Origin: an uncultured Gemmatimonadaceae bacterium
Lineage (GTDB): Bacteria > Gemmatimonadota > Gemmatimonadetes > Gemmatimonadales > GWC2-71-9
NCBI GenBank assembly: GCA_964348385.1
Contig: CAYGCN010000001.1
Location: 537-64,536 of the forward strand
Length of the DNA: 64,000 nt
Direction of reading: 5' to 3'
The notes under the pieces were generated by a model, which saw only the letters and a program-made list of their open reading frames with translations, did no database searches and was not told where the DNA came from. The position numbers and the translations under genes were made by a program. This document shows positions 11,415 to 55,410 of the stretch, one piece after another (positions within the stretch are counted from its first letter, which is position 1; the number at the start of each line of letters is the position of its first letter).

Positions 11415-12293
11415 ATGCCGCCGCCGCACTTGGCGCGATCCAGCCGAACCGCACAAGTCCGCCGCGTTCTCATCGGCCTCCTCATCGCAAACCTGGGCGT
11501 CGTGGGGGCCAAGTTCGTCATCGGGCTCCGCACGGGCTCCCTCGGCGTGCTCGGCGATGCCGTGCATTCCTCCGTCGATGCGTTCAACAACGTGCTGGCC
11601 CTCGCCGTCATCCGGGTCGCCGCGCGCGAGCCTGACGAAGACCACCCGTACGGACACGAGAAGTTCGAGACCCTGGGCGCCCTGGCGATCGTGGTGTTTC
11701 TGTCGATCACGGGATTCGAGTTGGTGCAACAGGCGTTCACCCGGTTGCTAGCCGGCGGCATGACCATCGACATCACGGCCGGGGAACTCGGCCTGCTGGT
11801 CAGCACGCTCGTCGTGAACACGGTCGTGACGGTCTACGAAACCCGACGTGGACGTGAACTCAAGAGCGATATCCTGCTGGCCGACGCTGCCCATACCCGT
11901 GCCGACGTGTTCATCACGATCGGTGTGCTGGTCGGCGTGCTTGCCGGTCGCTACGGGTACGCCTACGTCGATCCGATCATGGCGTTGATCATCGCCGCGG
12001 TCATCGTCGTGCTGGCGTACCGAATCGTCGCCCGTTCGGTCCCGGTGCTGGTCGATCAGCTCGTCACGGAGCCGCACGAGATCCAGGATGCTGCCGAGCA
12101 CGTGGGTGGCGTCGTCCGCGCCTACGACATCCGGTCACGGGGGGTGCGGGAGCGTCGCTTCGTCGAGTTGACGATCGCCGTCGATGGCACGGCAACCGTC
12201 GAGGCGGCACACAAGCTGGCCGACTATGTCGAGCGTCGACTTCGGGACGACCTCGGATTCCACGAGGTCATCGTCCACGTCGAGCCGTGCTGA
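11415..12293 (+). CDS. Cation diffusion facilitator (CDF) family metal efflux transporter
   Basis: GDAVHSSVDAFNN, DHPYGHEKFE, and the C-terminal cytoplasmic domain. The track start is a TTG at 11391. I prefer the ATG at 11415, because a perfect TTGACA (11378-11383) sits immediately upstream of 11391. Confidence 0.8.
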   Translation: MPPPHLARSSRTAQVRRVLIGLLIANLGVVGAKFVIGLRTGSLGVLGDAVHSSVDAFNNVLALAVIRVAAREPDEDHPYGHEKFETLGALAIVVFLSITGFELVQQAFTRLLAGGMTIDITAGELGLLVSTLVVNTVVTVYETRRGRELKSDILLADAAHTRADVFITIGVLVGVLAGRYGYAYVDPIMALIIAAVIVVLAYRIVARSVPVLVDQLVTEPHEIQDAAEHVGGVVRAYDIRSRGVRERRFVELTIAVDGTATVEAAHKLADYVERRLRDDLGFHEVIVHVEPC

Positions 12294-13093
12294 CCTCACC
12301 GCAACCTCAGCCTCGACGCGACCGTCGGCCGCGGTCGCTCCGACAGGAGTACAGCGAGTTCATCCTCGAACGGATCGAGGAGTTCAAGCAGCAACTCACT
12401 CGTCGGGAGCTGATGAGCATCGCCGACGACGCGGTGCGCGAGCTCGATGCCGGGACCGAAGACCAGTTGGTGATGACCGAGGTGCTGGTCCTGGAGCACG
12501 TGGATCGCCTGATCATGCGGCGGCTCAACCTGCCGAGCTACCGCCGATGGCGGTCCCGGCATCTCAGGTTGCGGCGCGCGCAGCAGGAACCCACTCACTG
12601 GGGCATCGATCCACACTCCCCCCTCGTGGCGCTCGCTTCGAACCTCGAGCCGGGCGGAGAGGCCCTTGCCGTCGGGACCGGCGCGCAATCGGCGTGCCTC
12701 TACCTCGCCGCCCACCAGTGGTCGGTCGTGTTCATCGGGCCGCAGGTCGCGCAGGTCGAAGCTTTCGAAACCCGGGCGGCCGCGGAGGCGTTGGGAACGA
12801 GGATTCAGGCGTATGTGGTGAGTCTGGGAATGTGGTTTCCGGAAGTGGCACCGTCACTGGTGGTGCTCGACCCGGGGACGCTCGCCGGGCTGGGCGCCGC
12901 CGAGCGGGAGCAGTTCTTTCAGGCGCTGATGGACCGGACTCGGCCGGGCGGCGTGCACCACCTGCTGACGTCGGACAACACGCAGGGCGTCATCACGTTC
13001 GCGCCCGAGATCGTCAAGTCACACTATGCCGGCTGGCGCTTCGACCGCATCCACGACCACGCATCACGCGGCTTCGTCGCGATCAAGCCCTGA
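12287..13093 (+). CDS. Hypothetical protein; helical N-terminal half plus a TehB-like methyltransferase-fold C-terminal half with a degenerate SAM motif
   Basis: GTG start overlaps the CDF gene end by 7 nt. The C-terminal half reads ALAVGTGAQSACLYLAAHQWSVVF ... VVLDPGTL ... RTRPGGVHHLL ... KSHYAGWRF. This follows the order of class I MTase motifs, but GxGxG is reduced to GTG. Confidence 0.5.
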   Translation: MLTSPQPQPRRDRRPRSLRQEYSEFILERIEEFKQQLTRRELMSIADDAVRELDAGTEDQLVMTEVLVLEHVDRLIMRRLNLPSYRRWRSRHLRLRRAQQEPTHWGIDPHSPLVALASNLEPGGEALAVGTGAQSACLYLAAHQWSVVFIGPQVAQVEAFETRAAAEALGTRIQAYVVSLGMWFPEVAPSLVVLDPGTLAGLGAAEREQFFQALMDRTRPGGVHHLLTSDNTQGVITFAPEIVKSHYAGWRFDRIHDHASRGFVAIKP

Positions 13094-17064: not shown

Positions 17065-19650
17065 ATGCCGTACCGTTTGCGATCGATGCGCTGCATCCGA
17101 TGCCTCATCGGTGGCGCGGGACTCACGCTATTCGCACTCGCCACCCCGGCCGGCTCGCTGGTCGCGCAGGACGTCGCCGTCCCCGATCCCCGAACGGTGC
17201 TGGGCCTCGAGATCGGTGCCGACTCGGTGCTGGCGGACTGGTCGCAAATCGGCGCCTATTTCACCGCACTCGCACGCCGATCGGAGGCTGTGCGGCTCGA
17301 CACGATCGGACGTACCACGCTCGGCAAGCCGTTGCTCATGGCGACCATCACGGCACCTAGGCATCAGGGCAACCTCGAGGTCATTCGTCAGCAACGAGCG
17401 CTGCTTGCCGATCCGCGACGCCTGCGCTCGGCACTCGAGGATTCGCTGGTTCGCTCGATGCCTTCCGTCGTGTTCATCAACAACAACATCCACTCCACGG
17501 AGGTCGCTTCCAGCCAGTTCTCGATGCAGCTCGCGCACCGCCTCGTAACCGACCCGCGATATCGACAGGTGCTCGAGAACGTCATCGTCCTGATGACTCC
17601 GTCGGCCAATCCCGATGGGTTGGACACGGTCGTGGCGTGGTATCGCCAGCACAAAGGCAGCCGATTCGAGGCAGGACCGCTTCCCTGGCTGTACCATCCG
17701 TATGTCGGGCACGACAACAATCGTGACTGGTTCATGCTGACGCAGGTCGAGAGCCAGGCCATCGCCCGAGTCCTGTATCGAGAGTGGTTCCCGGAGGTGG
17801 TGTGGGACGTGCATCAGATGGGGAACAGCGGCCCCAGGCTCTTCCTGCCACCATTCAGTGATCCGGTCAATCCGAACCTCGACCCGATCGTCGTCGAAGC
17901 GATCAACCTCGTGGGGACGGCCATGGCCGCGTCCGTGTACGACGCTGGCAAGACCGGTGTGGCGCATCAGACGCGGTTCGATCTGTGGTGGCACGGCGGG
18001 TTCCGTACGATCCCGGCCCGGCACAACATGATCGGCATCCTGTCGGAAGCCGCGAGCGCTCGCCTGGCCTCACCCATCTTTCAATCCCCGGAGGCCCTGC
18101 GGCGCAGCGAACCGGGCGTGAACTACCCGGGGCCGTGGGAGGGTGGCTGGTGGCGCCTCGGGGACATCATCGAGTACGAGTTGCTCGCCGCCGACGGCCT
18201 GCTGCAACTCGTGGCCGCACAGCGTGAGCGTTTCGTCCGGCGGTTCGTTACCCTCGGCCGGCGGGCCATCGCCGCCGGCGAGGCCGGGAACCCCTACGCG
18301 TTCCTTCTGCCGCCGGACCAGCGCGACCGGGGCGCCGAAGCCGCCCTGCTTCAGGCCCTCCTCGGTGCGGGGATCGAGATTCGGCGGGCGACGGAGCCGT
18401 TCACCGCGGACGGCGATCGCCATCCCGCGGGCACGCTCGTCATTCCCATGGCCCAGCCGTTCCGCGCCCACGTCAAGGATCTGCTGGAGCTGCAATCCTA
18501 CCCGGACCGCCGCCAATACCCGGGCGGTCCGCCGGAGACCCCCTACGATGTCGCCGGCTGGACGCTGCCCATGCAACTGGGCCTCGATGTGCGCACCGTC
18601 GCGCAGCCGTTCGAGGTTCGCAGCGAGCTGGTCCGCACGGTGGAGCCGCGACCCGGCTCGGTGATCGGCTCCGGACCACAGTGGGTGCTCACCAACCGGG
18701 CGGCGGCGGAGAGCCGTACCATCGTCGAGGCCTTGCGCTTGGGAGCGCGGGTGTGGGTGTCGGCGACACCCATCGAGGTGAACGGCACGACGGTGCCGGC
18801 GGGGTCGGTCGTGCTCGCGCCGGCGGGACGCCAGGAGCGTCTCGCGGAGCTCGTGAGAGAGCACACCGCGGCCTACGGGTTCGACGCGTGGGGGACACGG
18901 GGCCTGCGCGCTGCGGAGGGTACGATCGCGCGTCTGCCGCGAATCGGCCTCTATAAGCCGTGGGTCGCGAGTATGGACGAAGGGTGGACACGATGGGTGC
19001 TCGAGCAGCACGGTATTCCATACGTGACGGTCACCGACTCCATGGTCCGCGCCGGCCGACTCGACAGGCGGCTCGACGTGCTGCTGCTCCCCGACGTGAG
19101 TGCGAATGCCATCGTCCGCGGCTATCCGGAGTCGATCGTTCCCGCGCCCTACGCCGGGGGAATCGGTGAATCGGGCGTAGCCGCCATGGTCGAGTTCGTG
19201 CGCGGCGGAGGCACATTGGTCACGCTCGACGGATCGAGCGACTTCGCCATCGAGCACCTCGGCTTGCCCGTACGGAACGGATTGGGCCAGCGACGCGGCA
19301 TGCCCGATGCCGAGGACTTCTACGCTCCGGGCTCGGTATTCGCCGTCGAGGTTCGGCCCGGCACACCGCTCACGTCTGGCATGGATTCGACTGCCTTCGT
19401 GTATTTCGCCAATGGTGCTGCGTTCGAGGCGTCGGCGCCCGCCGAGGTGCTGGCGCGGTTTGCCGATGCGCCGCTCCGCTCGGGGTATGCGTTGAACCAG
19501 GAGCAGCTCGCCCACAAGGCGGCGCTCGTGGACGTAAAGGTAGGGGATGGTCGGGCGATCCTGTTCGGCTTCCGCCCGCAGCACCGGGGGCAGACCCACG
19601 GCACGTTCAAACTGCTGTTCAATGCGCTGCTGCTGAGCGGTCCCTCCTAG
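17065..19650 (+). CDS. Secreted peptidase M14 (zinc carboxypeptidase) family protein, 861 aa
   Basis: Track ORF 16798..19650 trimmed to the ATG at 17065, which gives a signal peptide (…LTLFALATPAGSLVAQD). An M14-like HSTE zinc motif is present (NNNIHSTEVAS), and also NPDG and HDNNRDW. Confidence 0.8.
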   Translation: MPYRLRSMRCIRCLIGGAGLTLFALATPAGSLVAQDVAVPDPRTVLGLEIGADSVLADWSQIGAYFTALARRSEAVRLDTIGRTTLGKPLLMATITAPRHQGNLEVIRQQRALLADPRRLRSALEDSLVRSMPSVVFINNNIHSTEVASSQFSMQLAHRLVTDPRYRQVLENVIVLMTPSANPDGLDTVVAWYRQHKGSRFEAGPLPWLYHPYVGHDNNRDWFMLTQVESQAIARVLYREWFPEVVWDVHQMGNSGPRLFLPPFSDPVNPNLDPIVVEAINLVGTAMAASVYDAGKTGVAHQTRFDLWWHGGFRTIPARHNMIGILSEAASARLASPIFQSPEALRRSEPGVNYPGPWEGGWWRLGDIIEYELLAADGLLQLVAAQRERFVRRFVTLGRRAIAAGEAGNPYAFLLPPDQRDRGAEAALLQALLGAGIEIRRATEPFTADGDRHPAGTLVIPMAQPFRAHVKDLLELQSYPDRRQYPGGPPETPYDVAGWTLPMQLGLDVRTVAQPFEVRSELVRTVEPRPGSVIGSGPQWVLTNRAAAESRTIVEALRLGARVWVSATPIEVNGTTVPAGSVVLAPAGRQERLAELVREHTAAYGFDAWGTRGLRAAEGTIARLPRIGLYKPWVASMDEGWTRWVLEQHGIPYVTVTDSMVRAGRLDRRLDVLLLPDVSANAIVRGYPESIVPAPYAGGIGESGVAAMVEFVRGGGTLVTLDGSSDFAIEHLGLPVRNGLGQRRGMPDAEDFYAPGSVFAVEVRPGTPLTSGMDSTAFVYFANGAAFEASAPAEVLARFADAPLRSGYALNQEQLAHKAALVDVKVGDGRAILFGFRPQHRGQTHGTFKLLFNALLLSGPS

Positions 19651-20269
19651 CCGACCCACCCTCGAGGGCAGGGAGTGTCGGCCTCGAGAGCCAACGCCGC
19701 TCCGGCAAACAGAACCGCAGCGGCCAGTCCTTGGCCTGCGAGATGCCGACGCGGGGCCCCGTAAGGATGCGGTGCCGCACGCGCGATCGGCGGGGCAGGA
19801 CGCGCAGCGGGCCATCCACCAACGAGACGCCGTCGTGCGCTCCGGTGATACCCAGGGCCTGACACAGGCGTCCCGGGCCCGAACACAGGAGCCGGGCATC
19901 CGTCATGCCGCGCCGCTCCATCATGATGTCGATCCCCTCGACCGGTTCCAGCGCGCGCAGCAGCACGGCGGTCGGGACACCCGCGCGCTCGGTCACGGCG
20001 TTCGCGCACCAGTGCACACCGTAGCTGCGGAACACGTAGATCGTTCCGGGCACGCCGAACAACGATCGATTGCGGCGGGTCCGCCGATTGCGGTATCCGT
20101 GATCGGCGGGGTCATGGCTTCCGACATAGGCCTCCACTTCCACGATACGCCCCGCGACGACCCGTCCGTCGATAGCGCTCTCGAGGACGCACCCTAACAA
20201 ATCGCGCGCGACACGGGCCGTGTCGCGCGCGAAGAACGACGGACCGAGGGGTGACCCCCTCGCAGTCAC
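19619..20269 (-). CDS. mpg: DNA-3-methyladenine glycosylase (AAG/Mpg family)
   Basis: FFARDTARVARDLLG, GRIVEVEAYVG..D.A.H, YVFRSYGVHWCANAV. GTGA overlap with the upstream gene. The 3' end overlaps the convergent M14 gene by 32 nt. Confidence 0.85.
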   Translation of the reverse strand: MTARGSPLGPSFFARDTARVARDLLGCVLESAIDGRVVAGRIVEVEAYVGSHDPADHGYRNRRTRRNRSLFGVPGTIYVFRSYGVHWCANAVTERAGVPTAVLLRALEPVEGIDIMMERRGMTDARLLCSGPGRLCQALGITGAHDGVSLVDGPLRVLPRRSRVRHRILTGPRVGISQAKDWPLRFCLPERRWLSRPTLPALEGGSARRDRSAAAH

Positions 20270-22098
20270 TCGGCGTCCGGCCCTTTCATCACCCGCTGCA
20301 GCGCCGCCGACATGCGACGCAACAGGCTGTCCTCGTCGGCCACACCGCCCTTGGGAGCGGGAGCTGGTGTCGGTTCCGGCTGGGGCGCCGGTGCGCTGGT
20401 CTCCGGTTGCTCAGCGGCCGAGGACCGAGACCCAGCATCGTCGCCTTTCGCTGCGCCGGAGTCCGGCGAGCTCCCGGAGGACGCGGGCTGCGATCCGGGC
20501 ATCCCCCGCTGACTGCCGACGCGAGGACCGATGGACGGCGCGCCGGGAGTGGCGCGTCGTGCTTCCGGTAACGGGGCCGAGGTCCGGTTCGTGGGCCGAG
20601 CCCGCTCAGTATCGCCGGCGGGCGCTGCCCGCTGAGGGCCCGAGCCACCACCACGTGAACCACGACGAAACCGCGGATTCCGCTTCCTCGGCGCGGGCGC
20701 CGACGCCGCGGTGTCCTTTTCGGGTGCAGCGGCTTTCGGCTCGACTGCCGCCTTGTCACTCTGGGACGTCGGCGTAGCATCACCCTTGGCCCGACGGCCT
20801 CTCCCACGTGTGGACTTGCGGGTGCTGGCGCGGCGCGAGCGCGCAGCCTTCTCGGCCGGCTGGTCATCGGGCGCATCCTCGGGCGACACGTCCGCCGACG
20901 ATCCGTCCTGCGCCTCAGCACCTGCGACCGCTTCAGGAGTGAGCCGAAGGTCGTAGCCATCGCCTTCGGTCTTTGCCAGCTCGATCACGTTCGCGTCGTG
21001 TGCCTGCCGCAACATCCGATGGTACCGAGGTCGCTCGAACAGCGGGTCGCCGTCCTCACCCAACAGCTCGACCATCTTGTCCCGGGCTTCGTCGGCGCCG
21101 ACCGACGTGTCGCCGACGGCCCCGAGCACGAGGAGCGCCTGCTTGAGCAACTCGAACGCTTCGGCGAGGCTCAGGTGACGGCCACGCGCCTCCTGGCGCT
21201 CTGCGGGCTCGGTGTCCCGTCGTCGCGGGGACCGCTTGCGTCGGGACTTGGCGGCCGGTGCGCGATCGCGCGCCACGGGCTCGCGCTTCTTGAACTCCGC
21301 CTCGTCCTCGGGCGAGACGTTCGCGTTCTCGCCGACGTCGATCGCGTACTGGCCGTTCTCCATCTTCTCGATGGTCAACAGGCCACGCTGGGCAGCCTCC
21401 ACCACGAACTTGCTGAACCGACTGAAGCCGGCATCCTTCTCGGTGAAGCTCGCGTCGATGCTCTGCATGACCTGCTTGAGGCGGTCCGAGCGCATGACGT
21501 CGTCCTCGTGCTTCATGTGGGTCACGGCTTCGACCACCAGTTCCCACGGGTCACGACGCATGAGCTCCACGTCGGCCTCCTTGGTGAGGCCCGTCAGCTC
21601 CGTGTAGCTGAAGTACTCGTCGCAGTTCTGGATCAGGAGATCGCTGGACGACTCCCGGATCCCCACGCCGATCACGTATTTCCCGTACTCCTTCAGCTTG
21701 AGCACGAGGCTCGAGAAGTCGGAGTCACCCGAGAGCAGGATGAAGGTCCCGATCTCCGGACGCGTGAAGACCAGCTCCAGTGCATCGATGGCCAGTCGGA
21801 TATCGGTGGCGTTCTTCTTATTCGAGCCGAACGCCGGGGCAAAGATGAGATCGATGGACGACTCGGACAGCGGGACAATGTACTGCGGGTAGCGACGCCA
21901 GTCGGCGTACGCGCGCTGAACGGCGACCTTGCCCTTGATCATCTCCGAATCGAGGAGTCGCCGCAGTTGACTCTGGAGATCCGACCGGATCCCCAAAGTC
22001 ACGTTGTCGAAATCGATGAGCAGAGCCGCATTGGGCGCATGCACCAGCGGCTCACGGGGGGCGGACCGACCGGGTCGCCCTGGACTGAATTCCCTCAC
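20266..22098 (-). CDS. NYN-domain (LabA-like) protein with two OST-HTH/LOTUS-like domains and a long basic, disordered C-terminal tail
   Basis: NYN core: ALLIDFDN...[12 protein letters not shown]...[33 protein letters not shown]-like segments follow ([13 protein letters not shown]...[18 protein letters not shown], and a second around [13 protein letters not shown]). The last ~230 aa are rich in Arg, Pro, Ser and Ala. Confidence 0.8.
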
Positions 22099-31755: not shown

Positions 31756-33585
31756 TCACGAGACGGCGGGCGTGCGAGTCGCCGGTGGCGCGTCCACCGC
31801 CTGGAGCCGGCGATACGGACCTCCGGCCGAGAGCAACTCGTCGTGGCGACCGATCTCCACGATTCGGCCGCCGTCCAGCACGGCGATCCGATCGGCGCGC
31901 TCCAGGGTGGAGGACCGGTGGGCGATGAGCAACACGGTCCGATCACGCAGGAGGCGATCCATGGCGTCCTGCACGAGGCGCTCCGAGTCCGGATCCAGGT
32001 GAGACGTGGCTTCGTCCAGAATGAGAATCGGCGGGTCGCGCAGGAGTGCCCGCGCAATCGCGATCCGCTGGCGCTCGCCTCCCGACAGCCGCATCCCGCG
32101 CTCGCCCAGGATGGTATCGTACCCGCCCGGCAGCCGCTCCACGAAGGCGTGCGCGTTGGCGGCGCGTGCGGCCGCGTGCACCTCCGCGTCCGTCGCACCC
32201 AACTGGTCGCCGTAGGCGATGTTGTTACGCACCGTATCGTTGAAGATCACCGTATGCTGACTCACGATTCCAAGGCTGCGTCGCAGTGACCGACGGGCGT
32301 ACCGCGTGAGCGGCACACCGTCCACGAGCACCCTGCCTCGGGTCGGTTCGACAAATCGCGGCAACAGGTCGGCCAGCGTGGATTTCCCCGCCCCGGATGC
32401 ACCGACCAGCGCCAGGATCTCCCCGCGGCGCAGCTCGAGATCGACGCCCCGAAGAACCCAGTCGTCACCCTCGTAGACCACCCAGACGTCCTCGAGCACG
32501 ATGCGCTCCTGCAGCCCGGGAAACGGGATGGTCGCGTCGGTGTCGACGTCGTCGGGCCGCTCATCGAGCACCTCGAAGATACGCTGTGCCGCTCCAAGCG
32601 CCTGTTCGGCTTGCGCGGGGAACTGCGACAGGCGCTTGACCGGCGGCAGGAGGCGGAGCGAGAGCGTCAGGAACGCGACCAGGATCTCGGGACGCAGGGT
32701 CGCACCCCCGCCGGCCACAGCCCCAATCAGGAGCAGCACCACGAGGACCGTCGCCCCCAGCGTCTCGCTCATGGGACCGGCCAGCAGCGCGGCACGCTGG
32801 ACGCGCAGGACGCCGCGACGGTACCGCTGGACAACCTCCGCGAAGCGTCGCCGCTCGTAGGCCTCGGCCCCGTACGCCTTCACCACCCGCGCCCCCTCGA
32901 GCGTCTCGCTCATGATGGCCGTCATCTCTCCCCGATCGTCGAGCACGGTCACCACCCGCGAGCGGATTCGTCTCAGGATCGGTCGCAGCACGAGCGCCAC
33001 CGTCGGTGCGACGACGAGGGTGACGAGGGCCAGTCGCCAGGACAGCGCGAACAGGATCGCGAGGTAGACGGCGATGAGGATCACGTTCTGCAGCACCGCA
33101 ACCAGCGCCTCGCTGACGGCCCATTTGGCCTGATCGGCGTCGGCGACCATGCGACTCAGGATCTGCCCGCCCTTGGTTCGCCGGAAGAAGCCGAGCCCGA
33201 AGTGCTGGAGACGCCCGTGGAGGTCGATACGGAGATCGCGGGCGACCGACTCCTGCAGATAGTGACTCAGGAGGCCTGCGACGTAGGCCGCGGCATTCTT
33301 GAGAGCGACCGTGACCAGGATGACGAGGACCACGACCCGGAGCGCTCCACGGGGATCGGTCGGGAGCAGTCCACCGACCGTCCAGTCGAGCACCCGCTCC
33401 ACCAGGGTAGGCGACTCGGCCACGGCAGCGCCGGCGCCGAACAGGAGACGGAACAGGGGAATGAGGAGCGTGAGCAGGAACCCGTCGAGCACCGACGCGA
33501 CGACGGCGGCCGCAAACGCGGCGAGGAAGGCGAGTCGGAACGGTCGGGCATACCCGACGAGCCGCCGGAAGCGGCCTGCGGTCAC
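31756..33585 (-). CDS. ABC transporter, fused permease/ATPase, MsbA-like exporter
   Basis: Six-TM exporter domain. Walker A GASGAGKST, signature LSGGERQRIAIARA, Walker B ILILDEATS. GTGA overlap with the upstream gene. Confidence 0.85.
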   Translation of the reverse strand: MTAGRFRRLVGYARPFRLAFLAAFAAAVVASVLDGFLLTLLIPLFRLLFGAGAAVAESPTLVERVLDWTVGGLLPTDPRGALRVVVLVILVTVALKNAAAYVAGLLSHYLQESVARDLRIDLHGRLQHFGLGFFRRTKGGQILSRMVADADQAKWAVSEALVAVLQNVILIAVYLAILFALSWRLALVTLVVAPTVALVLRPILRRIRSRVVTVLDDRGEMTAIMSETLEGARVVKAYGAEAYERRRFAEVVQRYRRGVLRVQRAALLAGPMSETLGATVLVVLLLIGAVAGGGATLRPEILVAFLTLSLRLLPPVKRLSQFPAQAEQALGAAQRIFEVLDERPDDVDTDATIPFPGLQERIVLEDVWVVYEGDDWVLRGVDLELRRGEILALVGASGAGKSTLADLLPRFVEPTRGRVLVDGVPLTRYARRSLRRSLGIVSQHTVIFNDTVRNNIAYGDQLGATDAEVHAAARAANAHAFVERLPGGYDTILGERGMRLSGGERQRIAIARALLRDPPILILDEATSHLDPDSERLVQDAMDRLLRDRTVLLIAHRSSTLERADRIAVLDGGRIVEIGRHDELLSAGGPYRRLQAVDAPPATRTPAVS

Positions 33586-35150
33586 GGGGCTCCCCTTGGC
33601 GTGAGCAGCGCCACGGGCAGAATCACCTCCTCCGGCGTCACCCCACCATGCAGGAAGGAGCCACGATACCGCGCCTGATATTCCCGGAGCTTCGTCGGGT
33701 AGACGAAGAAGTGATCACCGGTGGCGAGCAGCATGCGCACGCCGAGCCGACCCTTTGGGAGACCCCAGGCGGTGAGATCGTCCACAAGGATCGCCGTTGC
33801 CGGCTTCTCGGCCCGCAGATCTTCCCCGAACTTGTACCGGAGATTGGCCGTCGCATCGCGTTTGGCGAACACCGTGGCCGGGGTGTGGCAGTGGATCGAC
33901 CCGTGGTCGGTGGTGAGCAGCACCGGGACACTGCGGCGCTCCGCCTCGCGCAGCGCTCGAAACAAGGCGGAGTCCTCGAACCACGTGCGGGTCACGCTGC
34001 GCAGCGCTCCCGAATCTCTGGCGACCTCATAGAGGATGGCATTCTCGGCGCGCCCATGCGTGAGCTGGTCCACGAAGTTGAACACGAGCGCCGTCACCCC
34101 ATCCTGCGACAGGTATCCCGGGACCCGCTTCAGCAGTTGCTCACCCTCTTGGGACGTCGCGACCTTCTCATACCTGACCGGGACCGATCGACCGGTCAGT
34201 TCGCGAAGCTGCTCTGCCAACAGGGCATCCTCGTGGGCGTTCAGACTCTCGTCGTCGCGCTCCCCCCACCAGTCCGGATGCCGACCCTTTATCTCCATCG
34301 GAAACAGCCCGCTGAAGATGGCATTGCGGGCGAACGGCGTGGCGGTGGGGAAGATGCTGTAGTAGTACGACTCCTCGAGATCGAACAGCGGCGTCACGTG
34401 CGGCTTGAGCAGTTCCCACTGGTCCAGACGCAGGCAGTCCACCACCACGAACATGACCCGACCGTGCGCCTCCAACAGCGGCATGAGAAACTCGCCACAC
34501 ACGTCCACCGACAGCGGGGGTCGGTCCTGGTCGGGATGGGCCAACCACGTCGGGTACTGCGAGCGAATGAACGTCGCGAAATCGTCGTGCAGGCTCAACT
34601 GGAAGCCCCGGAGGGCGTCCTGCAGACCGCGTTCCTCACTCTGCCCGAGCCGGGCCTCCCACTGAAACACCTCGACGACGAGTTCCATCCACTCCCGCCA
34701 CCCCGGTCGGCTCCCCCGTCGCTGCTCGAGATCCCGAAAGCGCGTCACGAAGTCACGAGCCAATCGCTGCTGCCGAATCCGATCCCCCTCGAGCAGCCGC
34801 GTGACCACCGTCAGCACCTGGCGGGGGTTGACCGGCTTCACCAGGTAATCGTCCAGCTCGATGCCGATCGCCTCGTGCATCGTCGTGGACTCTTCGCTCT
34901 TGGTGACCATGACGACGGGGGCAGCGGGATCGATCGCCCGGATCTCCGCGACGAGGTCCAACCCTCGGCGCCCGGGGAGCTGCTCATCGAGCAGCACGAG
35001 CCCGTACGGCCGGCGCTGCAGCAGCGCGACCGCGTCGTCGCCGTGCGCCGCCTGCTCCACCTCATAGCCATGCTCTTTCAGGAACAGGACATGCGCGCCG
35101 AGCGATTCGATCTCGTCGTCCACCCAGAGGATCGTTTTGGGACGGGGCAT
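33582..35150 (-). CDS. Response regulator with PglZ (alkaline-phosphatase superfamily) output domain, PorX-like architecture
   Basis: Trimmed to the ATG at 35148-35150 (MPRPKTILWVDDE; AGGAAAGAAG upstream). The REC residues are intact (DD, LVLLDEQLPG, VTKS, YLVKP). PglZ-like motifs: VVVDCLRLDQW, FPTATPFARNAIFSG, LLTTDHGSIH. Confidence 0.8.
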   Translation of the reverse strand: MPRPKTILWVDDEIESLGAHVLFLKEHGYEVEQAAHGDDAVALLQRRPYGLVLLDEQLPGRRGLDLVAEIRAIDPAAPVVMVTKSEESTTMHEAIGIELDDYLVKPVNPRQVLTVVTRLLEGDRIRQQRLARDFVTRFRDLEQRRGSRPGWREWMELVVEVFQWEARLGQSEERGLQDALRGFQLSLHDDFATFIRSQYPTWLAHPDQDRPPLSVDVCGEFLMPLLEAHGRVMFVVVDCLRLDQWELLKPHVTPLFDLEESYYYSIFPTATPFARNAIFSGLFPMEIKGRHPDWWGERDDESLNAHEDALLAEQLRELTGRSVPVRYEKVATSQEGEQLLKRVPGYLSQDGVTALVFNFVDQLTHGRAENAILYEVARDSGALRSVTRTWFEDSALFRALREAERRSVPVLLTTDHGSIHCHTPATVFAKRDATANLRYKFGEDLRAEKPATAILVDDLTAWGLPKGRLGVRMLLATGDHFFVYPTKLREYQARYRGSFLHGGVTPEEVILPVALLTPRGAP

Positions 35151-35353
35151 GGGGTCGCTTCTTTCCTGAGTGCGGGTTCCGCCGACTTGGACCGTTCGAC
35201 CCGCCCGCTGCCGAGCGGTACCGGACCACACCCGCAAGTTAGGCCCCTCGGGTGACGGCTTCAACGCGTGCTGGCCGTCCACCCCATGCGACCCTACATT
35301 GCGACACGACGCCGACCACCCGGACCCGCTGCCACCTGCTCGCGTGGAGCATC

Positions 35354-35758
35354 ATGGCCGATCACCTCAGCGCGATGGAAGATCACCTGCTTGCCGACCT
35401 GGCCGAGGCGGCGCGTGGGCCCAAGCGCAACGGCTTATTCGCCCTGTGGCTGGTCGTGCGACACTGCGACGGGGCGTTACCCCCTGAGCCGCTCAGCGCA
35501 CACGCTGGCGGTACGCGGCTTGGCGGCCTGGAGCACCGTTTGAGTAGCCTGTCCCTCCCGGCGCCGTTGCGTCGAGCGCTCCCGGCCTGTCTCCGCGAGC
35601 TTCGAGTTGGACAGGTCTCACGGATCCCGATCGCGCTCCAACAGCTCGCGGCACCCGCCCGCGAGGGCGTAGATGGGGGCGCGGCCGATGCGCTCGCTGC
35701 CGCCGCCCGGACGGCCCGACGACTGGTCCGTGAGCACCGCTCGGAGGCGGAGGCATGA
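35354..35758 (+). CDS. Hypothetical 134-aa Ala/Leu/Arg-rich helical protein
   Basis: Track ORF 35252..35758 trimmed to the ATG at 35354 (GTGGAG 4 nt upstream). Codon third positions are GC-rich like neighbouring genes. ATGA overlap with the downstream DnaB-like gene. I recognise no motifs. Confidence 0.45.
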   Translation: MADHLSAMEDHLLADLAEAARGPKRNGLFALWLVVRHCDGALPPEPLSAHAGGTRLGGLEHRLSSLSLPAPLRRALPACLRELRVGQVSRIPIALQQLAAPAREGVDGGAADALAAAARTARRLVREHRSEAEA

Positions 35759-36618
35759 GCGAGGTTCAGCGCCTGCACCGCGATTCGCTGACCGCGCTGG
35801 TCAATCAGGTGGACTCCCTCGCGCCGGGCACGATCCCCACCGATACGATCCCAACCGGCTTCGCTTCCCTGGACCAGGCCCTGGGTGGCGGCGTGCGACG
35901 CCGCGACCTGATCGGGCTGGGTGGCGACGTCGGCTCGGGGAAATCGTCGCTGGCCCTCGCCATCGCCCTTCGGTCGGCTTCGGCGGGATACCGTGTGAGC
36001 TTCTTCTCCGGTGAGATGGACGAGGATCGGCTGATGGAGCGGGCGGTGGCGCTGGAAGCCCGCGTCACCATTGACGAGATGCGCAGCGCCAAGCTGTCGG
36101 AGACCAAGCGCGCTGCCATCGGTGCGGCCGCGCTCAAGTACCGTGACTTGGGCCTCCGCATCCATCCCATCGTGGGCCTCACGTTCGAGGAGGCGCTCGC
36201 GCCGGCGTGGGACGACGAGCCGGTGCTGTTGGTGATCGACTATCTTCAGCTGCTGCCACCCCACACGCCGCGGGCCACTCAGGACGAGGACCTCGCCGCG
36301 ACGGTGCGGGCGTTGAAGACGCTGGCCCTGGAGCGGCGCATCGCCTGTTTCGTGGTGGCCCAACTCCCGCAACACGTCCACGCACGGCCCGATCCCCGGC
36401 CGACGCTCGACGACTTCGGTGCGCTGGGCTCGGTCAAGCAGCACGCCGACGTCGTACTGGCGCTCTACCGAGAGGAGATGTACAAGCCGGGAGGTGGCGT
36501 GGAAGGAGCGACGGAGCTTCGGATCGCCAAGAATCGGAACGGCCCCACCAGCTTCATCGATCTCTACTTCTACCAACAGTGGCTGCGGTTTGAGGACATG
36601 CTCGATCCGGAGCGATGA
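35755..36618 (+). CDS. DnaB-like helicase C-terminal (RecA-fold) domain protein lacking the DnaB N-terminal domain
   Basis: 287 aa. IPTGFASLDQALGGG, Walker A GGDVGSGKSSLAL, Walker B VLLVIDYLQLL, then RALKTLALERRIACFVVAQL, LDDFGALGSVKQHADVVLALYREEMY and ELRIAKNRNGPT. All of these are collinear with DnaB motifs H1 to H4. Confidence 0.75.
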   Translation: MSEVQRLHRDSLTALVNQVDSLAPGTIPTDTIPTGFASLDQALGGGVRRRDLIGLGGDVGSGKSSLALAIALRSASAGYRVSFFSGEMDEDRLMERAVALEARVTIDEMRSAKLSETKRAAIGAAALKYRDLGLRIHPIVGLTFEEALAPAWDDEPVLLVIDYLQLLPPHTPRATQDEDLAATVRALKTLALERRIACFVVAQLPQHVHARPDPRPTLDDFGALGSVKQHADVVLALYREEMYKPGGGVEGATELRIAKNRNGPTSFIDLYFYQQWLRFEDMLDPER

Positions 36619-36630
36619 TCTCAGCCGAGC

Positions 36631-37563
36631 CTATCTCCGCTCCATCGCCGCAGCCGCCAGTCGGGTGCGTTCCGTTTCCCACCGCACCCACACCACTGCG
36701 CCGAGAATCACCCCCATCGCCGCGAAGGTCCGGATCGAGACGTGCTCGTCCAGCACGGCCCACCCGAGGAGTACCGCGACGACGGTGTTCACGTATACCG
36801 ACGTCCCGACGAACGTCGGGGAGGCGTGCCGCAACAAGTACACGTAGCTTGTGAACGCGATGACGGAGCCGAAGACGATCAGATAGAGCACCGCACCGAC
36901 CCCCGCTGCCGACAGCGCCAGGGAGCCTGCCTCCCCCCGCAGGAGGCCCAGCAGTGCCAACACGGCGCCGCCCGCCAGCATCTGGAGCGCCGCGTGCACA
37001 TACGGCGGGGTATCGACCGGATGGCGCTTGGAGTAGATGGACCCCAGGGCCCAGGACGCCGACGCGACGAGGAGCGCGACGGCACCCCACAGGGCGGCGA
37101 CCCCGAACGTCCCGAGCGTATCACCCACGAGGAGAACCGTCCCGGCGAAGCCGACCAGCAGGCCAGTCACCTGTCGCGCCGTCGGGCGAGTCTCGCTCCC
37201 CGGAATCAGCGCATCGAACAGCGCCATCCACAGCGCGCCCGTCACGATCAGGATGGCGGCGAAGCCCGACTCCACCGTCTGCTCCGCCCAGATGACGAGT
37301 CCGTTGCCGATCGTGAGCAGCAGGATCCCGACCACGGCGGCGGTCCGCCAATCGCGGGCGCGCGTCGGGAGGCGGCGTCGGCGCAGTCGTGCAATGGCGA
37401 GGAGAATGGTCCCGGCAGCCACGAACCGGATCCCCCCAAACAGGGCGGGCGGGAGATGCTGCACCCCGATCCGGATCGCCAGGTACGTCGATCCCCAGAT
37501 CAGACTGATGGTGATGTAGGCCGCCAGAACACGGCCGGAGAGCGTGCGCATATTGGCTGGCAT
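36631..37563 (-). CDS. EamA/DMT-family transporter
   Basis: The last 310 codons of track ORF 36631..38442 (MPANMRTLSG...). Ten hydrophobic segments and two EamA-like halves. Confidence 0.8.
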   Translation of the reverse strand: MPANMRTLSGRVLAAYITISLIWGSTYLAIRIGVQHLPPALFGGIRFVAAGTILLAIARLRRRRLPTRARDWRTAAVVGILLLTIGNGLVIWAEQTVESGFAAILIVTGALWMALFDALIPGSETRPTARQVTGLLVGFAGTVLLVGDTLGTFGVAALWGAVALLVASASWALGSIYSKRHPVDTPPYVHAALQMLAGGAVLALLGLLRGEAGSLALSAAGVGAVLYLIVFGSVIAFTSYVYLLRHASPTFVGTSVYVNTVVAVLLGWAVLDEHVSIRTFAAMGVILGAVVWVRWETERTRLAAAAMERR

Positions 37564-37761: not shown

Positions 37762-38511
37762 ATGGCCGGCCACAGCAAGTGGAAGCAGATCAAGCACAAG
37801 AAGGCCGCGGCCGACGCCAAGCGCGGCGCGAAATTCACCAAACTCATCAAGGAGATCACCGTCGCCGCGCGCCAGGGAGGCGGGGACCCCGCCGGTAACG
37901 CGCGGCTGCGGACCGCGATCGCCAACGCTAAGACCGAGAACATGCCGGCCGACAACATCGATCGGGCGATCAAGAAGGGCACCGGCGAGCTGGAGGGCGT
38001 GACCTACGAGGAGGCCAGCTACGAGGGCTACGGACCGGGCGGGGTCGCCGTGTTCGTGCAGGTGACCAGTGACAATCTCAATCGGACCGTGGCGGCCGTC
38101 CGGCACATCTTCTCCAAGAATGGCGGGAGCCTCGGCGAGCCCAACTCGGTGGCCTGGCTGTTCGACAAGCGGGGCCTGATCTACGTCGACGCCGCCCGCT
38201 ATCCCGAAGACGTCGCCATGGAAGCGGCACTCGAGGCCGGCGCCGAGGATCTCACCACCGAAGACGGCCAGCATGTCATCACCACACGGCCGACCACACT
38301 CCACGCCGTGCGGGACGCCCTTGCCGAGCGCGGCATCGAGCCGGACGAGGCCGAGATCGGCATGAGCCCGACCTCGACGGTGCACATCGAGGGGAAGGAG
38401 GCCGAGCAGATGTTGCGGCTGCTGGACGCCTTGGAGGAGCACGACGACGTGTCCAAGGTGTTCAGCAACTTCGATATCGACGCGGAAACCCTCGCGGCGG
38501 TCGAGGGGTGA
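37762..38511 (+). CDS. yebC: YebC/PmpR-family transcriptional regulator
   Basis: Trimmed to the ATG at 37762 (GGAGGA upstream). The hallmark [23 protein letters not shown]-type N-terminus is present. Confidence 0.9.
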
Positions 38512-38996
38512 CCGTTCGGGTCCTCGGCATCGATCCCGGCACGACGGTCACGGGATACGGTGTCGTCGAGCCGGCGGACGGTCGGCTCGGTCACCTCATC
38601 GAGTGCGGCGTGATTCGAACGGCAGCCCGCGAGCCCCTGTGGACGCGGCTCGAGACCCTCCACCAAGGAATCACCGAGCTGATCGCAACCCATCGACCCG
38701 GTGTCCTGGCGCTGGAGAGCGTGTTCTACGCGAAGAACGTGCGAACGACGCTCACGCTGGGGCACGCGCGTGGTGTCATCCTCCTGGCGGCGGCACAGGG
38801 CGGCCTCGAGGTGGCGGAGTTCCCGCCGGCGACGGTCAAGAAGACCATCGTGGGTTCCGGAGGGGCCGCAAAGGCCCAGGTGGGGTTCATGGTGCAGCGG
38901 CTGCTCCAGCTCGCCGCGCCACCCGCCCCGGACGATGCCGCGGACGGCGTGGCGCTGGCCCTCACGTACCTCCTGACCCTGGCGCGCCGCCGATGA
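38508..38996 (+). CDS. ruvC: Crossover junction endodeoxyribonuclease RuvC
   Basis: [40 protein letters not shown] overlap with yebC. Confidence 0.9.
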
Positions 38997-39586
38997 TCGC
39001 GGGGGTGCGCGGCGTGCTTCACGCCAAGACGGGAGACCGCGTGCTGGTCGTGACGGATGGCGGGGTCACGTATGAGATCGCCGTGCCGCTCGGCGTGCTG
39101 GAGACCATGCCGGCGGTCGGCAACCGGGTGGAGCTCAAGACTGTGCTCGTGGTGCGCGATGACGGCTGGCTGCTGTTCGGCTTCGATGAAGATCACGAGC
39201 GGGCGTTGTTCCAACGGCTCCTCGGTGCCACGGGGGTGGGACCCAGGCTGGCGCTGGCCCTCGTCTCCACGTTGGGCGGTGCCCGGGTGGTGCGGTCGAT
39301 CAAGGAAGGCGATCTCGCGGCGCTGTGTACCGTGCCCGGCGTTGGCAAGAAGACGGCCGAGCGCATCGTCGTCGAGTTGAAGGACCGGCTCCGGGACATC
39401 GCGGCGCCGGGCGCGCCGGAAACCGCCGGCGCACCGACCGAGCAGGCCGTCCAGGCGCTCGTGAACCTCGGGTACCCGTCGGTCGAGGCGGAACGGGCCG
39501 TCCGCGCGGTCCTGGCCGAGGGGGAGCAGGCGCAGGCGGTTGACCTGATTCGCGGCGCGCTACATCTGTTAACAAAACGAAAGTGA
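38993..39586 (+). CDS. ruvA: Holliday junction branch migration complex subunit RuvA
   Basis: Within track ORF 38603..39586. ATG at 38993 (MIAGVRGVL...). Helix-hairpin-helix motif PGVGKKTAERIV. ATGA overlap with ruvC. Confidence 0.9.
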   Translation: MIAGVRGVLHAKTGDRVLVVTDGGVTYEIAVPLGVLETMPAVGNRVELKTVLVVRDDGWLLFGFDEDHERALFQRLLGATGVGPRLALALVSTLGGARVVRSIKEGDLAALCTVPGVGKKTAERIVVELKDRLRDIAAPGAPETAGAPTEQAVQALVNLGYPSVEAERAVRAVLAEGEQAQAVDLIRGALHLLTKRK

Positions 39587-39759
39587 TCGAGGCGATGCAG
39601 ACCGCAGAGTGGAATTGCACGAAGTGCGGCGTGACCAACCGGAAGCTGGTAGACGCCGATCAACACGAGGCGACTGATCGGTGTGTGACGTGTCATGCCC
39701 GGCACCGGCTCACCCGAGACGCCAGGCCGGTGCGCTGGAACGCCGTGGCGAAGTCGTGA
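39583..39759 (+). CDS. Unlisted 58-aa zinc-ribbon-like ORF between ruvA and ruvB
   Basis: Below the track's size cut-off. GTG at 39583 overlaps the ruvA stop as GTGA; an alternative ATG lies at 39595. Its TGA (39757-39759) overlaps the ruvB GTG as GTGA. Translation: (MIEA)[54 protein letters not shown], with CxxC...CxxC. About 80 percent of codon third positions are G or C by hand count. Confidence 0.5.
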
Positions 39760-40791
39760 GTCGCGCGCAGATCACCACCCCGGAGATCCTCCCCGAAGAG
39801 GCGTCGGCCGAGCAGTCGTTGCGGCCGTCGCAACTGAGCGAGTTCGTGGGGCAGGCAACCGTCAAGGAAAGCCTGCAGATCGCCATCGACGCGGCGAAGC
39901 AGCGGGGCGAGCCGCTGGACCACATCCTGTTCTTCGGCCCCCCCGGTCTCGGCAAGACCACGCTGGCCATTCTCCTCGCGCGCGAGATGGGGGTGAACAT
40001 CCGCACGACCAGCGGGCCCGTGTTGGAGAAAGCCGGTGATCTCGTGGGCCTGCTCACCACGCTGCGCCGAGGCGACGTCCTGTTTATCGACGAGATTCAC
40101 CGCCTCCGGCCTGCCCTCGAGGAATTCCTCTATCCGGCCATGGAGGACTTCCGGGTCGACGTCCGCATCGCCGAGGGCCCCAACGCGCAGACCATCCCCA
40201 TGAGCATCGAGCCCTTTACCCTGGTGGGCGCCTCGACGCGATACGGGATGCTGACACCGCCGATGCGGGCACGCTTCGGGATGGTCGAGCGGCTCGGGTA
40301 CTACCCAGCCGAGGATCTGGAGACGATCGTCGTGCGCTCGGCTGCCATTCTGGACGTGGGTGTCGATGCGGATGGGGCGCGCGAGATCGCCAAGCGGAGC
40401 CGCGGCACGCCCCGCGTCGCCAACCGGCTCCTCCGCCGCGTACGCGACTACGCACAAGTGCGCGCCGACGGGGCCATCACCCAGGCGGTGGCCGTGGCGG
40501 CGCTCAGCCGACTGAATGTCGACGAGTACGGGCTCGATGACATGGACGCCCGCATCCTGCAGATCATCATCGAGAAGTTCGACGGGGGTCCGGTGGGCCT
40601 GAACACCATCGCCGTGGCGGTCGGCGAAGACCCGGGAACGGTGGAGGAGGTGTACGAGCCGTTTCTCATCCAACAAGGCTTCCTGCACCGCACGCCGCGG
40701 GGCCGGACGGCGAGTCCGGGCGCGTACCGGCACTTCGGCTACACCCCGCCGTCCTCCGCGGGCGGCCAAGCGTCGATGTTCGACGGGGCCG

Positions 40792-40799
<8 letters not shown>
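39756..40799 (+). CDS. ruvB: Holliday junction branch migration DNA helicase RuvB
   Basis: Trimmed to the GTG at 39756. [12 protein letters not shown], Walker [21 protein letters not shown]. Confidence 0.9.
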
Positions 40800-53968: not shown

Positions 53969-54706
53969 TCAGAAGACCCGTTGCCATAGGGATGTGAGCC
54001 ACTCGGGCGATGCCACGTACCCGCCGAGAACGAGCCCGAACCACGTCGCCCCGGTGAGAGCCAGCACGCCGACGAGCACGACCGGCCAGAGCGAACGACG
54101 CCACTGAGCCACGTCGGACGCGACGAGTTCCCACCGCACAGATTCGCGCTCGATCGTCTCCTCCAGGGCGAGCCAGGCGGCCTCGAGCCGTCGACCGGTC
54201 GTGGTGAGGGCTTCTTGCCATGCCGTCAAAGCCATCGGCTCGGTTCCCGTGGCCAACACGAGCGCAGCGGCGCTCCGCTCCACGGCGTCGAGGGCCGCGA
54301 CGAGCCCTGCCCCGGCGGAGCCCAGCCGCGCAGTGACCGCCCGTCGGTCCACCGTCCCCGGGCCAAGCCGGCGACGACGTCGGCGCGGCATGCGAACCGC
54401 CTGCGCCTCGGCCTGAATGCGCCGGGAAGCTCGGCCAACGAGCAGGTCTGCCGCGCCCCGAACCGCTTCCTCCCACGCTTCCAGCCAGGCTGCTCGGCCG
54501 AGCGCGCCGACGGCCTCCTGGCGTTGCTCCCTTGCGGCAAGCCGTCTCGATTCGCCGGCACGCTCGAACAGGCGCGTGACCAAGCGAATGCGCACGGCAT
54601 CGAGCCGCAGCCCTCCGGGCGTGCGTCCGGTTCCGGTCACGAGCTTGCCCAGGTGTGGGCCCAGCTCCGGAACCCTGAGGGGTTGGAGCGCTCTCGAGAT
54701 GGTCAC
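53969..54706 (-). CDS. Hypothetical helical protein with a C-terminal transmembrane anchor
   Basis: Track ORF 53969..54844 trimmed to the GTG at 54704-54706 (GTGA overlap with the HAD gene stop). It is Ala/Arg/Glu-rich with helical character. C-terminal TM segment LWPVVLVGVLALTGATWFGLVLGG. The stop lies 1 nt before the acpS ATG. Confidence 0.5.
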   Translation of the reverse strand: MTISRALQPLRVPELGPHLGKLVTGTGRTPGGLRLDAVRIRLVTRLFERAGESRRLAAREQRQEAVGALGRAAWLEAWEEAVRGAADLLVGRASRRIQAEAQAVRMPRRRRRRLGPGTVDRRAVTARLGSAGAGLVAALDAVERSAAALVLATGTEPMALTAWQEALTTTGRRLEAAWLALEETIERESVRWELVASDVAQWRRSLWPVVLVGVLALTGATWFGLVLGGYVASPEWLTSLWQRVF

Positions 54707-55410
54707 GCGTAGATGGCGTTGATGACCGCGTCCGTGTGGCTGAGATCCTCGAAGGCGACGTCCGCGCCTGCCGCGAGCAGATCCACCACCGAATGGCGTC
54801 CGGTCGCAACGCCAAGGGCGCGGGCGCCGACGCCCTGGCCGCACGTCATGTCCGCCGGCGTATCCCCGATGATGACGATCTCACGACCCTGCGGCACGCG
54901 CCCCATGAGCGGGGCGGCCCGGGCCGCCGCGATGGCCGGTAGCTCCGCCCGCATGGCCGAGTCGGATCCGAAGGCCCCCACCCGGAAGCGTGCGGGATCC
55001 ACACCGGCCGCGACGAGCTTTAGCTCGGCTCCCATCGCGAGGTTCCCGGTCAAGAGACCCAATAGCGCATCGTGGCGCTGTTCCACGGCAGCAAGCAGGT
55101 CGGCGATTCCGGGATAGAGACGGATGCCAGTCTTGCGGCTGCTCAGCTCGACCCTCAACAACTCCAAATAGCGGCGACACACGGCCGAAATGCGCGACTC
55201 GCTCTCGGCATCCGGGTGGCCGGCTGCGGACATCAGTTCGACCACGATTTGAGGATCGGTCTTGCCGTCGAACCGGTACCCCTCGATCGGGCCGGTGGCA
55301 CCGATCTCGTCCATCAGGGCTCGCCCGATAGCGGACCGGCCCGCGCCGGCCGACCACAGCAGCGTACCGTCGATGTCGAACAGTACGAGTCTGCTGTATG
55401 CGCTACCCAT
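54703..55410 (-). CDS. HAD-superfamily hydrolase (phosphoglycolate-phosphatase-like)
   Basis: Motif I LVLFDIDGTLL, motif II LLTGN, motif IV IIGDTPADM. Confidence 0.8.
   Translation of the reverse strand: MGSAYSRLVLFDIDGTLLWSAGAGRSAIGRALMDEIGATGPIEGYRFDGKTDPQIVVELMSAAGHPDAESESRISAVCRRYLELLRVELSSRKTGIRLYPGIADLLAAVEQRHDALLGLLTGNLAMGAELKLVAAGVDPARFRVGAFGSDSAMRAELPAIAAARAAPLMGRVPQGREIVIIGDTPADMTCGQGVGARALGVATGRHSVVDLLAAGADVAFEDLSHTDAVINAIYA

Follow-up and report, generated by a model that had tools for sequence, protein, structure and literature searches.

A DnaB-like ATPase without the N-terminal domain and its small helical partner form a conserved gene pair in the Gemmatimonadota

DnaB is among the best-studied bacterial motors, and its linker helix is known to dock on the neighbouring subunit. 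RepA of RSF1010 shows that a RecA core alone can be a hexameric helicase, and RadA/Sms is another RecA-fold ring ATPase, equipped with a zinc finger, a KNRFG motif and a C-terminal Lon-like domain. The locus described here can be set beside all of these proteins. It consists of two overlapping genes in a stretch of 64,000 nucleotides (nt) from an uncultured Gemmatimonadaceae bacterium (contig CAYGCN010000001.1 of assembly GCA_964348385.1, positions 537 to 64,536, forward strand), which is called the window below. The second gene encodes an ATPase that appears to represent an uncharacterised DnaB subfamily, and the first encodes a partner that seems to have a novel fold. Together they make up a module of the Gemmatimonadota core genome that is passed on vertically. 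Phylum-wide conserved, chromosomal DnaB paralogues with a separate job are essentially undescribed, and the literature search on DnaB-like proteins without the N-terminal domain returned nothing on this family.

Both open reading frames (ORFs) and their overlap are present where the first-pass annotation of the window had placed them. The features of the pair are as follows.

35354-35758, plus strand: partner gene, 134 amino acids (aa), rich in Arg, Ala and Leu, with six predicted helices
35755-36618, plus strand: ATPase gene, 287 aa, a DnaB paralogue without the N-terminal domain, made up of the linker helix and the RecA-fold C-terminal domain
35743-35758, plus strand: coupling junction as read from the sequence, a Shine-Dalgarno-like tract, GGAGGCGGAGG, followed by the ATGA stop/start overlap

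The ATGA at 35755-35758 serves as the stop of the partner and the start of the ATPase, whose ATG comes shortly after the GGAGGCGGAGG tract, and a GGAG is located 4 nt 5' of the partner ATG. A longer, 168-aa version of the partner, starting from GTG 35252, was considered and rejected, since most listed homologues measure 125-135 aa and align from the ATG. This start is also disfavoured because a conserved promoter-like element, described below, would fall within the supposed extension.

The family was sought in GTDB, with one genome per species, by means of the patterns RFEDMLDP and SGEMDEDR. A relative of the ATPase is encoded by at least 494 species, and the best 80 genomes all belong to the Gemmatimonadota; the closest relatives of the window protein all stem from metagenome-assembled genomes of this phylum. 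Gene order was compared in 88 loci, comprising 87 family loci and one unrelated plasmid- or phage-like control (L004). In 80 of the 88 the partner gene is kept directly 5' of the ATPase gene. The two ORFs overlap by 4 nt at 42 of these 80 junctions, most of the others range from -1 to +4 nt, and the genes are fused in none of them; the apparent "fusion" in one 416-aa representative (P0269) results from multiple frameshifts and is artefactual. The suspicion that the pair itself is a frameshifted, misassembled or wrongly sequenced dnaB can likewise be dismissed, as none of the upstream reading frames contains anything like the N-domain and both the ORF sizes and the junction are conserved in the 80 loci. 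Among plasmid, phage and IMG/VR sequences no member of the ATPase family was found, the best matches reaching at most 35% identity in plasmids (annotated as dnaB) and at most 38% in IMG/VR. The plasmid and phage collections hold no relative of the partner either.

The ATPase corresponds to DnaB from the linker helix onwards. Its residues 32-281 cover positions 2-255 of the 255 positions of the Pfam profile DnaB_C (PF03796; E=2.6e-46, 158.5 bits). The DnaB profile TIGR00665 is matched at positions 156-433 of 435, with 168.5 bits against a curated cut-off of 385.25, and the scores for the remaining DnaB equivalogs are likewise far under their cut-offs. When the family is compared with 46 canonical DnaBs by hhalign, columns 163-443 of 453, which comprise the linker helix and the C-terminal domain, align at 100% probability. 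The three comparisons agree with the collinearity that had been proposed from the window sequence. The proposed lack of the N-terminal domain is also borne out, given that PF00772, the Pfam family of this domain, has no match in either ORF; the statement that the protein begins at the linker IPTGFASLD is not, since the linker-helix sequence RDSLTALVNQVD precedes it. The AlphaFold2 model of the ATPase (predicted local distance difference test, pLDDT, 75.7) places this helix at residues 11-20. The model superposes best on the ATPase domain of G40P (3BH0), with a template modelling (TM) score in the range of about 0.8, and it also matches the C-terminal domains of E. coli, G. stearothermophilus and Aquifex DnaB at about 0.8.

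Motif invariance was read across 35 family members that are 66-92% identical. Walker A and B, DYLQLL, the arginine-finger region and NRNGPT, all listed in the first-pass annotation, were correctly named. Walker A, the catalytic Glu87, Asp162, Gln165, Lys259 and Arg261 are invariant in these 35 members. The positions of the ATPase features are given here.

35779-35814, plus strand: predicted linker helix, residues 9-20, aligned to the canonical linker region and conserved in the family
35923-35946, plus strand: Walker A, GDVGSGKS, residues 57-64, with G62, K63 and S64 invariant in the 35 relatives
36007-36018, plus strand: SGEM with the catalytic Glu87, invariant even in the degenerate clade described below
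36232-36252, plus strand: Walker B region VIDYLQL, with Asp162 and Gln165 invariant in the active clade
36412-36429, plus strand: altered H4 loop DFGALG, in the place of the DnaB loop DLRESG that contacts single-stranded DNA (ssDNA), from alignments to solved DnaB structures
36529-36549, plus strand: arginine-finger region KNRNGPT, with Lys259 and Arg261 invariant and the Lys and Arg also kept in the degenerate clade
36586-36609, plus strand: C-terminal motif RFEDMLDP, specific to the family and invariant in it, absent from canonical DnaBs

Compared with DnaB itself (TIGR00665; PDB 4ESV, 6QEL, 2Q6T), the ATPase thus shares the collinear linker helix and RecA-fold domain, the fold, the Walker motifs, the catalytic Glu, the Gln and the Arg finger. 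It differs in the missing N-terminal domain, in an identity of at most 39%, in its RFEDMLDP end, in an apparently obligate small partner, in the lack of the P-loop lysine in some orthologues, and in the change of R-E-S-G to G-A-L-G. The last of these concerns the ssDNA loop. Where solved DnaBs read L-S-D-L-R-E-S-G, the window ATPase reads L-D-D-F-G-A-L-G, and every family member examined has [FL]-G-x-x-G at this position, so that the Arg and Glu of DnaB are replaced. In G. stearothermophilus R381, E382 and G384 contact ssDNA phosphates, the equivalent residues in E. coli being R403, E404 and G406 (PMC6391071). Because the R-E-x-G loop is replaced, the nucleic-acid contacts of the ATPase must differ from those of DnaB.

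Among proteins clustered at 50%, the family members measure about 255-295 aa, after which the scores drop sharply to full-length DnaBs (at most 39% identity and 145 bits). Of the full-length DnaBs, P0276 comes nearest to the family (38% identity), and its gene lies on L004, ENA contig c_000000040168. This plasmid- or phage-like contig carries ParA/ParB, ArdC, a DnaN-like gene and Rad52 and is unrelated to Gemmatimonadota chromosomes. In IMG many family members bear the label "replicative DNA helicase", probably a mistake and one that could misdirect the reconstruction of pathways in the Gemmatimonadota.

The RSF1010 RepA type (Pfam AAA_25) has in common with the ATPase that a RecA core of about 280 aa stands without an N-terminal domain. 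The match to AAA_25 is marginal (28.8 bits against a cut-off of 27, E=1.2e-06), and the same residues give the 158.5 bits and E=2.6e-46 to DnaB_C reported above. The ATPase is therefore far closer to DnaB_C and, unlike RepA, it is a chromosomal core protein with a partner gene. RadA/Sms offers a functional analogy only, as a ring ATPase of the same fold to which a genomic context suggestive of recombination might be compared. TIGR00416 matches with 33.8 bits against a cut-off of 403 and only over the P-loop region (residues 32-124), and 287 aa that are mostly DnaB_C (32-281) leave no room for the flanking domains of RadA.

Homologues of the partner number 268; the listed ones measure about 115-200 aa, mostly 125-135 aa, and the conserved motifs are RGPKRNGLFALWL, LSSLSLPAPLRRAL and LxAPAR. 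In close relatives the codon changes fall mainly on third positions (63, against 26 and 14 at the other positions), with 54 synonymous and 28 non-synonymous changes. These substitutions and the number of homologues indicate that the partner is a real gene under purifying selection. As had been noted from the sequence, it belongs to no recognisable family: Pfam, NCBIfam, PHROGs and PADLOC return no match, nor does Pfam for the longer upstream ORF. AlphaFold2 models the partner with six helices (pLDDT 94.9, predicted TM score 0.89). The best Foldseek matches to this model have E=0.37 in the PDB and E=0.58 in the viral set (BFVD), and a search of PDB sequences with the partner profile (hmmsearch) gave one chance match (E=5.7) and nothing relevant. 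Judging by the model, the fold is apparently new and has no detectable relative.

The idea that the partner might be a detached DnaB N-terminal domain did not survive comparison. DnaB chains are not among the best 50 of the 219 Foldseek PDB matches, none of which is found at E<=0.001, and hhalign gives the partner profile a probability of 0.2% against full-length DnaB. Neither the window nor the orthologous loci (0.97 Mb) gave a tblastn match to canonical DnaB N-domains (170-aa segments), a search that did recover the control L004. At the available sensitivity, Foldseek and hhalign rule this identity out. The known loaders (DnaC/DnaI, DciA, lambda P, G39P and PriC) fare no better, with no sequence or fold similarity to the partner in Pfam, NCBIfam, PHROGs, the PDB or BFVD. 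The pair would be a natural case of a DnaB motor domain without its N-terminal collar, combined with a protein of apparently new fold. The seven or eight conserved arginines of the partner are candidates for binding nucleic acid or, alternatively, the acidic RFEDMLDP end of the ATPase.

The two-protein unit also exists in a second form. Several divergent representatives have C, T or S at the position of the Walker A lysine. A profile built from seven lysine-less sequences retrieved hundreds more, nine of which were read; the lysine position is C, V or A in these nine, which include one labelled Gemmatimonas aurantiaca (GGDDGVGCS) as well as Gemmatimonas sp. and Gemmatimonadaceae sequences. This degenerate form keeps the catalytic Glu, the Walker B Asp and the Lys and Arg of the arginine-finger region. 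The gene labelled G. aurantiaca stands in the same locus (L091, 9589-10894; L089, L090 and L093 are degenerate as well), where the order is tyrS, REC-PglZ, a 135-aa partner, the ATPase, yebC, ruvC and ruvA, with ruvB, queA and tgt further on. The most divergent family member has the same gene context.

The partners of the degenerate form are still homologous to the window-type partner (hhalign probability 80%, E=1.3e-5), and wherever the P-loop lysine is lost they lack the arginine motifs RGPKRNG, PLRRAL and APAR. In the degenerate partners RGPKRNGLFALWL has become LGGGREVALAAL and LPAPLRRAL has become LPPATRSPF, while the lineages with an intact P-loop retain the partner arginine motifs. An active form and a P-loop-dead form thus seem to co-evolve with their respective partners. 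The joint change of state is the best available evidence that the two proteins work as one unit. Active and dead versions of one unit, with a partner that changes in step, amount to a natural experiment, and since Gemmatimonas aurantiaca is a cultivable species, the dead-form orthologue carrying its name makes the pair directly testable. The degenerate orthologues, the altered ssDNA loop and the linkage to yebC-ruvCAB treated next were all absent from the first-pass annotation.

The window is a high-GC region of the core chromosome with genes for Rho, RuvX, MltG, TldD/PmbA, PBP1, TyrS, RuvCAB, QueA, Tgt, YajC, Fmt and TamA/B. The immediate surroundings of the pair are as follows.

33582-35150, minus strand: REC-PglZ response regulator, 522 aa, divergent neighbour with the Pfam domains Response_reg and PglZ, a context gene whose membership in the unit is putative only
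35271-35300, plus strand: CTGGCC-N18-TACATT, a promoter-like element at the head of the partner-ATPase unit, with putative promoter function
36631-37551, minus strand: EamA-family transporter gene, convergent with the ATPase gene and separating it from yebC in the window lineage
37762-40799, plus strand: yebC-ruvC-ruvA-ruvB, downstream of the pair on the same strand, a conserved linkage

Downstream genes on the same strand as the pair include yebC in 80 of the 88 loci, ruvC in 75, ruvA in 74 and ruvB in 72. The pair stands upstream of yebC-ruvCAB in all examined lineages, and the order partner-ATPase-yebC-ruvC-ruvA-ruvB is retained even in members that are merely 38-50% identical. Thirty of 80 loci have no more than 161 nt between the ATPase gene and yebC, and another 21 have 258-601 nt. 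Several relatives have an ORF of 54-58 aa between ruvA and ruvB (L002 4774-4938, L006 10552-10725, L008 8542-8718), for which no Pfam match is recorded.

On the other side, 81 of the 88 loci and all lineages examined, down to the most distant members, have REC-PglZ as divergent neighbour, in keeping with its earlier description from the window. One Gemmatimonadales clade (19 loci in which the promoter-like motif stands about 1 kb 5' of the partner, including L064-L066 and L068-L073) apparently has a 329-aa gene between REC-PglZ and the partner, 3' of the motif; it was read only in L065 (4613-5602, plus strand), where it looks like a GT9/heptosyltransferase gene by eye. Since the EamA and GT9-like insertions interrupt the flanking linkages, the partner and the ATPase are the sole core that is never split.

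The element at 35271-35300 was scanned for with the pattern TGGC[CG]-N18-TACATT, which matches once in the 64-kb window, where 0.01 matches are expected by chance. The orthologous loci contain 48 strict matches, 47 of which stand at the head of the unit, 28 directly 5' of the partner gene and 19 located 5' of the inserted GT9-like gene. The position and conservation of the element suggest that it is probably a dedicated promoter or operator. Standard scans for sigma-70 promoters and terminators around the pair found nothing. An imperfect palindrome (35254-35279) overlaps the element.

The reading favoured here is of a DnaB-derived ring ATPase that has an accessory role and an obligate partner and is perhaps engaged in recombination or the processing of stalled forks alongside RuvABC. 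This proposal is tentative, with a probability of roughly 0.45. The ATPase would assemble by way of its linker helix into a ring like that of DnaB, with the ATP sites at the subunit interfaces, as is suggested by the retention of this helix, both Walker motifs, the catalytic Glu and the Arg finger in the window clade. The partner would bind the ATPase roughly one-to-one as an obligate cofactor; a stoichiometric complex is what the conserved stop/start overlap and the joint degeneration point to. The complex would act as an accessory ATPase distinct from the replicative helicase. Its likeliest field would be DNA recombination or stalled-fork processing with RuvABC, which is the leading functional guess because the pair lies upstream of yebC-ruvCAB and in the same orientation. 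If this link is functional, the pair would be a new component of bacterial recombination or fork repair. The suggestion in the first-pass annotation that a DnaB-derived ATPase has been recruited to another function fits the data best. Its defence variant is not supported: PADLOC offers no convincing match (mad8 at 23.9 bits is the best for the ATPase, and the partner has none), the neighbours are housekeeping genes, and the family is absent from the phage, plasmid and IMG/VR collections.

Several points weigh against this proposal. Across the phylum the genes keep the same order all the way from tyrS to fmt, so that the association with ruvCAB could be mere synteny. In 29 of the 80 loci, including the window, more than 1 kb of other genes separates the ATPase gene from yebC, and the unit has its own promoter-like element, with no obvious sharing with ruv. 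As for the separation from the replicative helicase, no canonical DnaB that could be tied to the Gemmatimonadota was found among the nearest full-length matches, whose representatives are plasmid- or phage-like or belong to Chloroflexi and Desulfobaccales. In addition, one published study (PMC3236778) indicates that losing part of the ssDNA contacts need not abolish unwinding of the DnaB type.

A more specific version of the accessory-ATPase proposal is unlikely as a whole. It pictures a hitherto unrecognised DNA motor, hexameric and derived from DnaB, dedicated to the processing of forks or Holliday junctions with RuvABC, whose collar would be replaced by a separate, non-homologous six-helix protein in contact with nucleic acid; the Gemmatimonas type would be an ATP-independent scaffold.

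Among the competing explanations, the one that survives best, although unlikely in its own right, is that the pair regulates the true replicative DnaB or serves as a decoy for it. The ATPase might join or cap DnaB rings, or titrate DciA or other clients, with the partner as modulator and ATP turnover of secondary importance. The large clade without the P-loop lysine, which keeps both genes at the same locus, fits such a binding or scaffolding role better than it fits a motor; the linker helix and the overall surface of the C-terminal domain are retained, and DciA has been reported in the Gemmatimonadota. However, every catalytic residue is invariant in the window clade, which argues for real ATP turnover, and nothing in the analysis ties the pair to dnaA, dciA or oriC. 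Should the pair nevertheless regulate the replicative helicase, a new kind of replication control would be at hand.

It is rather improbable that the pair is the functional partner of the divergent REC-PglZ regulator within a three-gene signalling module, in which the ATPase would be the effector or the sensor. The REC-PglZ protein has a PorX-like architecture, and its surroundings are housekeeping genes and no BREX-like defence context. Its adjacency in 81 of the 88 loci and the conserved cis-element within the shared intergenic region speak for such a module, but the region is collinear as a whole, which makes adjacency weak evidence, and the GT9-like gene intervenes in one clade. Moreover, a DnaB-like protein occurs in no known PglZ system, and the PADLOC matches of the ATPase are weak.

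A decaying remnant of a mobile-element loader-helicase module, comparable to G39P-G40P of phage SPP1, is very improbable. The chromosomal position of the pair is fixed among housekeeping genes in all examined lineages, and the two genes show strong conservation and purifying selection. In favour of a remnant, one clade is degenerate. The resemblance lies in a small all-helical protein encoded directly 5' of a DnaB-type ATPase, for which G39P-G40P, lambda P-DnaB and PriC are the comparisons and which is the order of phage loader-helicase pairs; furthermore, the G40P ATPase domain is the top fold match, and the score to PHROG 19 equals the level of TIGR00665. Unlike these pairs, the locus is non-mobile, the ATPase lacks the N-domain, and the partner resembles neither a solved protein, loader folds included, nor any PHROG. 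The collections searched above contain neither a relative of the partner among plasmids and phages nor a family member in IMG/VR.

Least probable of all is a two-piece replicative helicase, in which the ATPase would be the only DnaB of these genomes and the partner a functional replacement for the N-terminal collar. The lysine-less orthologues at the same locus, one of them labelled G. aurantiaca, the altered ssDNA loop with its lost Arg and Glu, and the arginine loss in the partner make it very unlikely that the family is the replicative helicase, and in lineages whose orthologue is P-loop-dead it cannot be the motor of replication. The TIGR00665 score is under half of the DnaB equivalog cut-off, and the partner is unrelated to the N-domain. 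Published surveys report, in indirect statements, DnaB inteins as well as DciA loaders for the Gemmatimonadota, yet the family proteins seen, roughly 240 in number and about 200-360 aa in length, are all too short to hold an intein. These points outweigh the attractions of the two-piece idea, namely the status of a core gene, shared by at least 494 species, the intact ATPase motifs and linker helix, the IMG label, the lack of a second dnaB tied to pair-bearing genomes among the nearest full-length matches, and the fact that superfamily helicases without an N-domain, such as RSF1010 RepA, do work.

Some observations concern the window beyond the pair. An Rfam scan of both strands of the whole 64 kb returned no family at the gathering score, that is, no tRNA, riboswitch or other known RNA. 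Two ORFs, at 12287-13093 (plus strand, 268 aa) and 54215-54712 (plus strand, 165 aa), have gene-like codon statistics and no Pfam match at E<=1e-5. A gene for a 610-aa protein (20266-22098, minus strand), in which an N-terminal NYN nuclease domain is the sole recognised domain, is directly followed on its 3' side by a methylpurine-DNA glycosylase gene (19619-20269, minus strand), the two ORFs overlapping by 4 nt.

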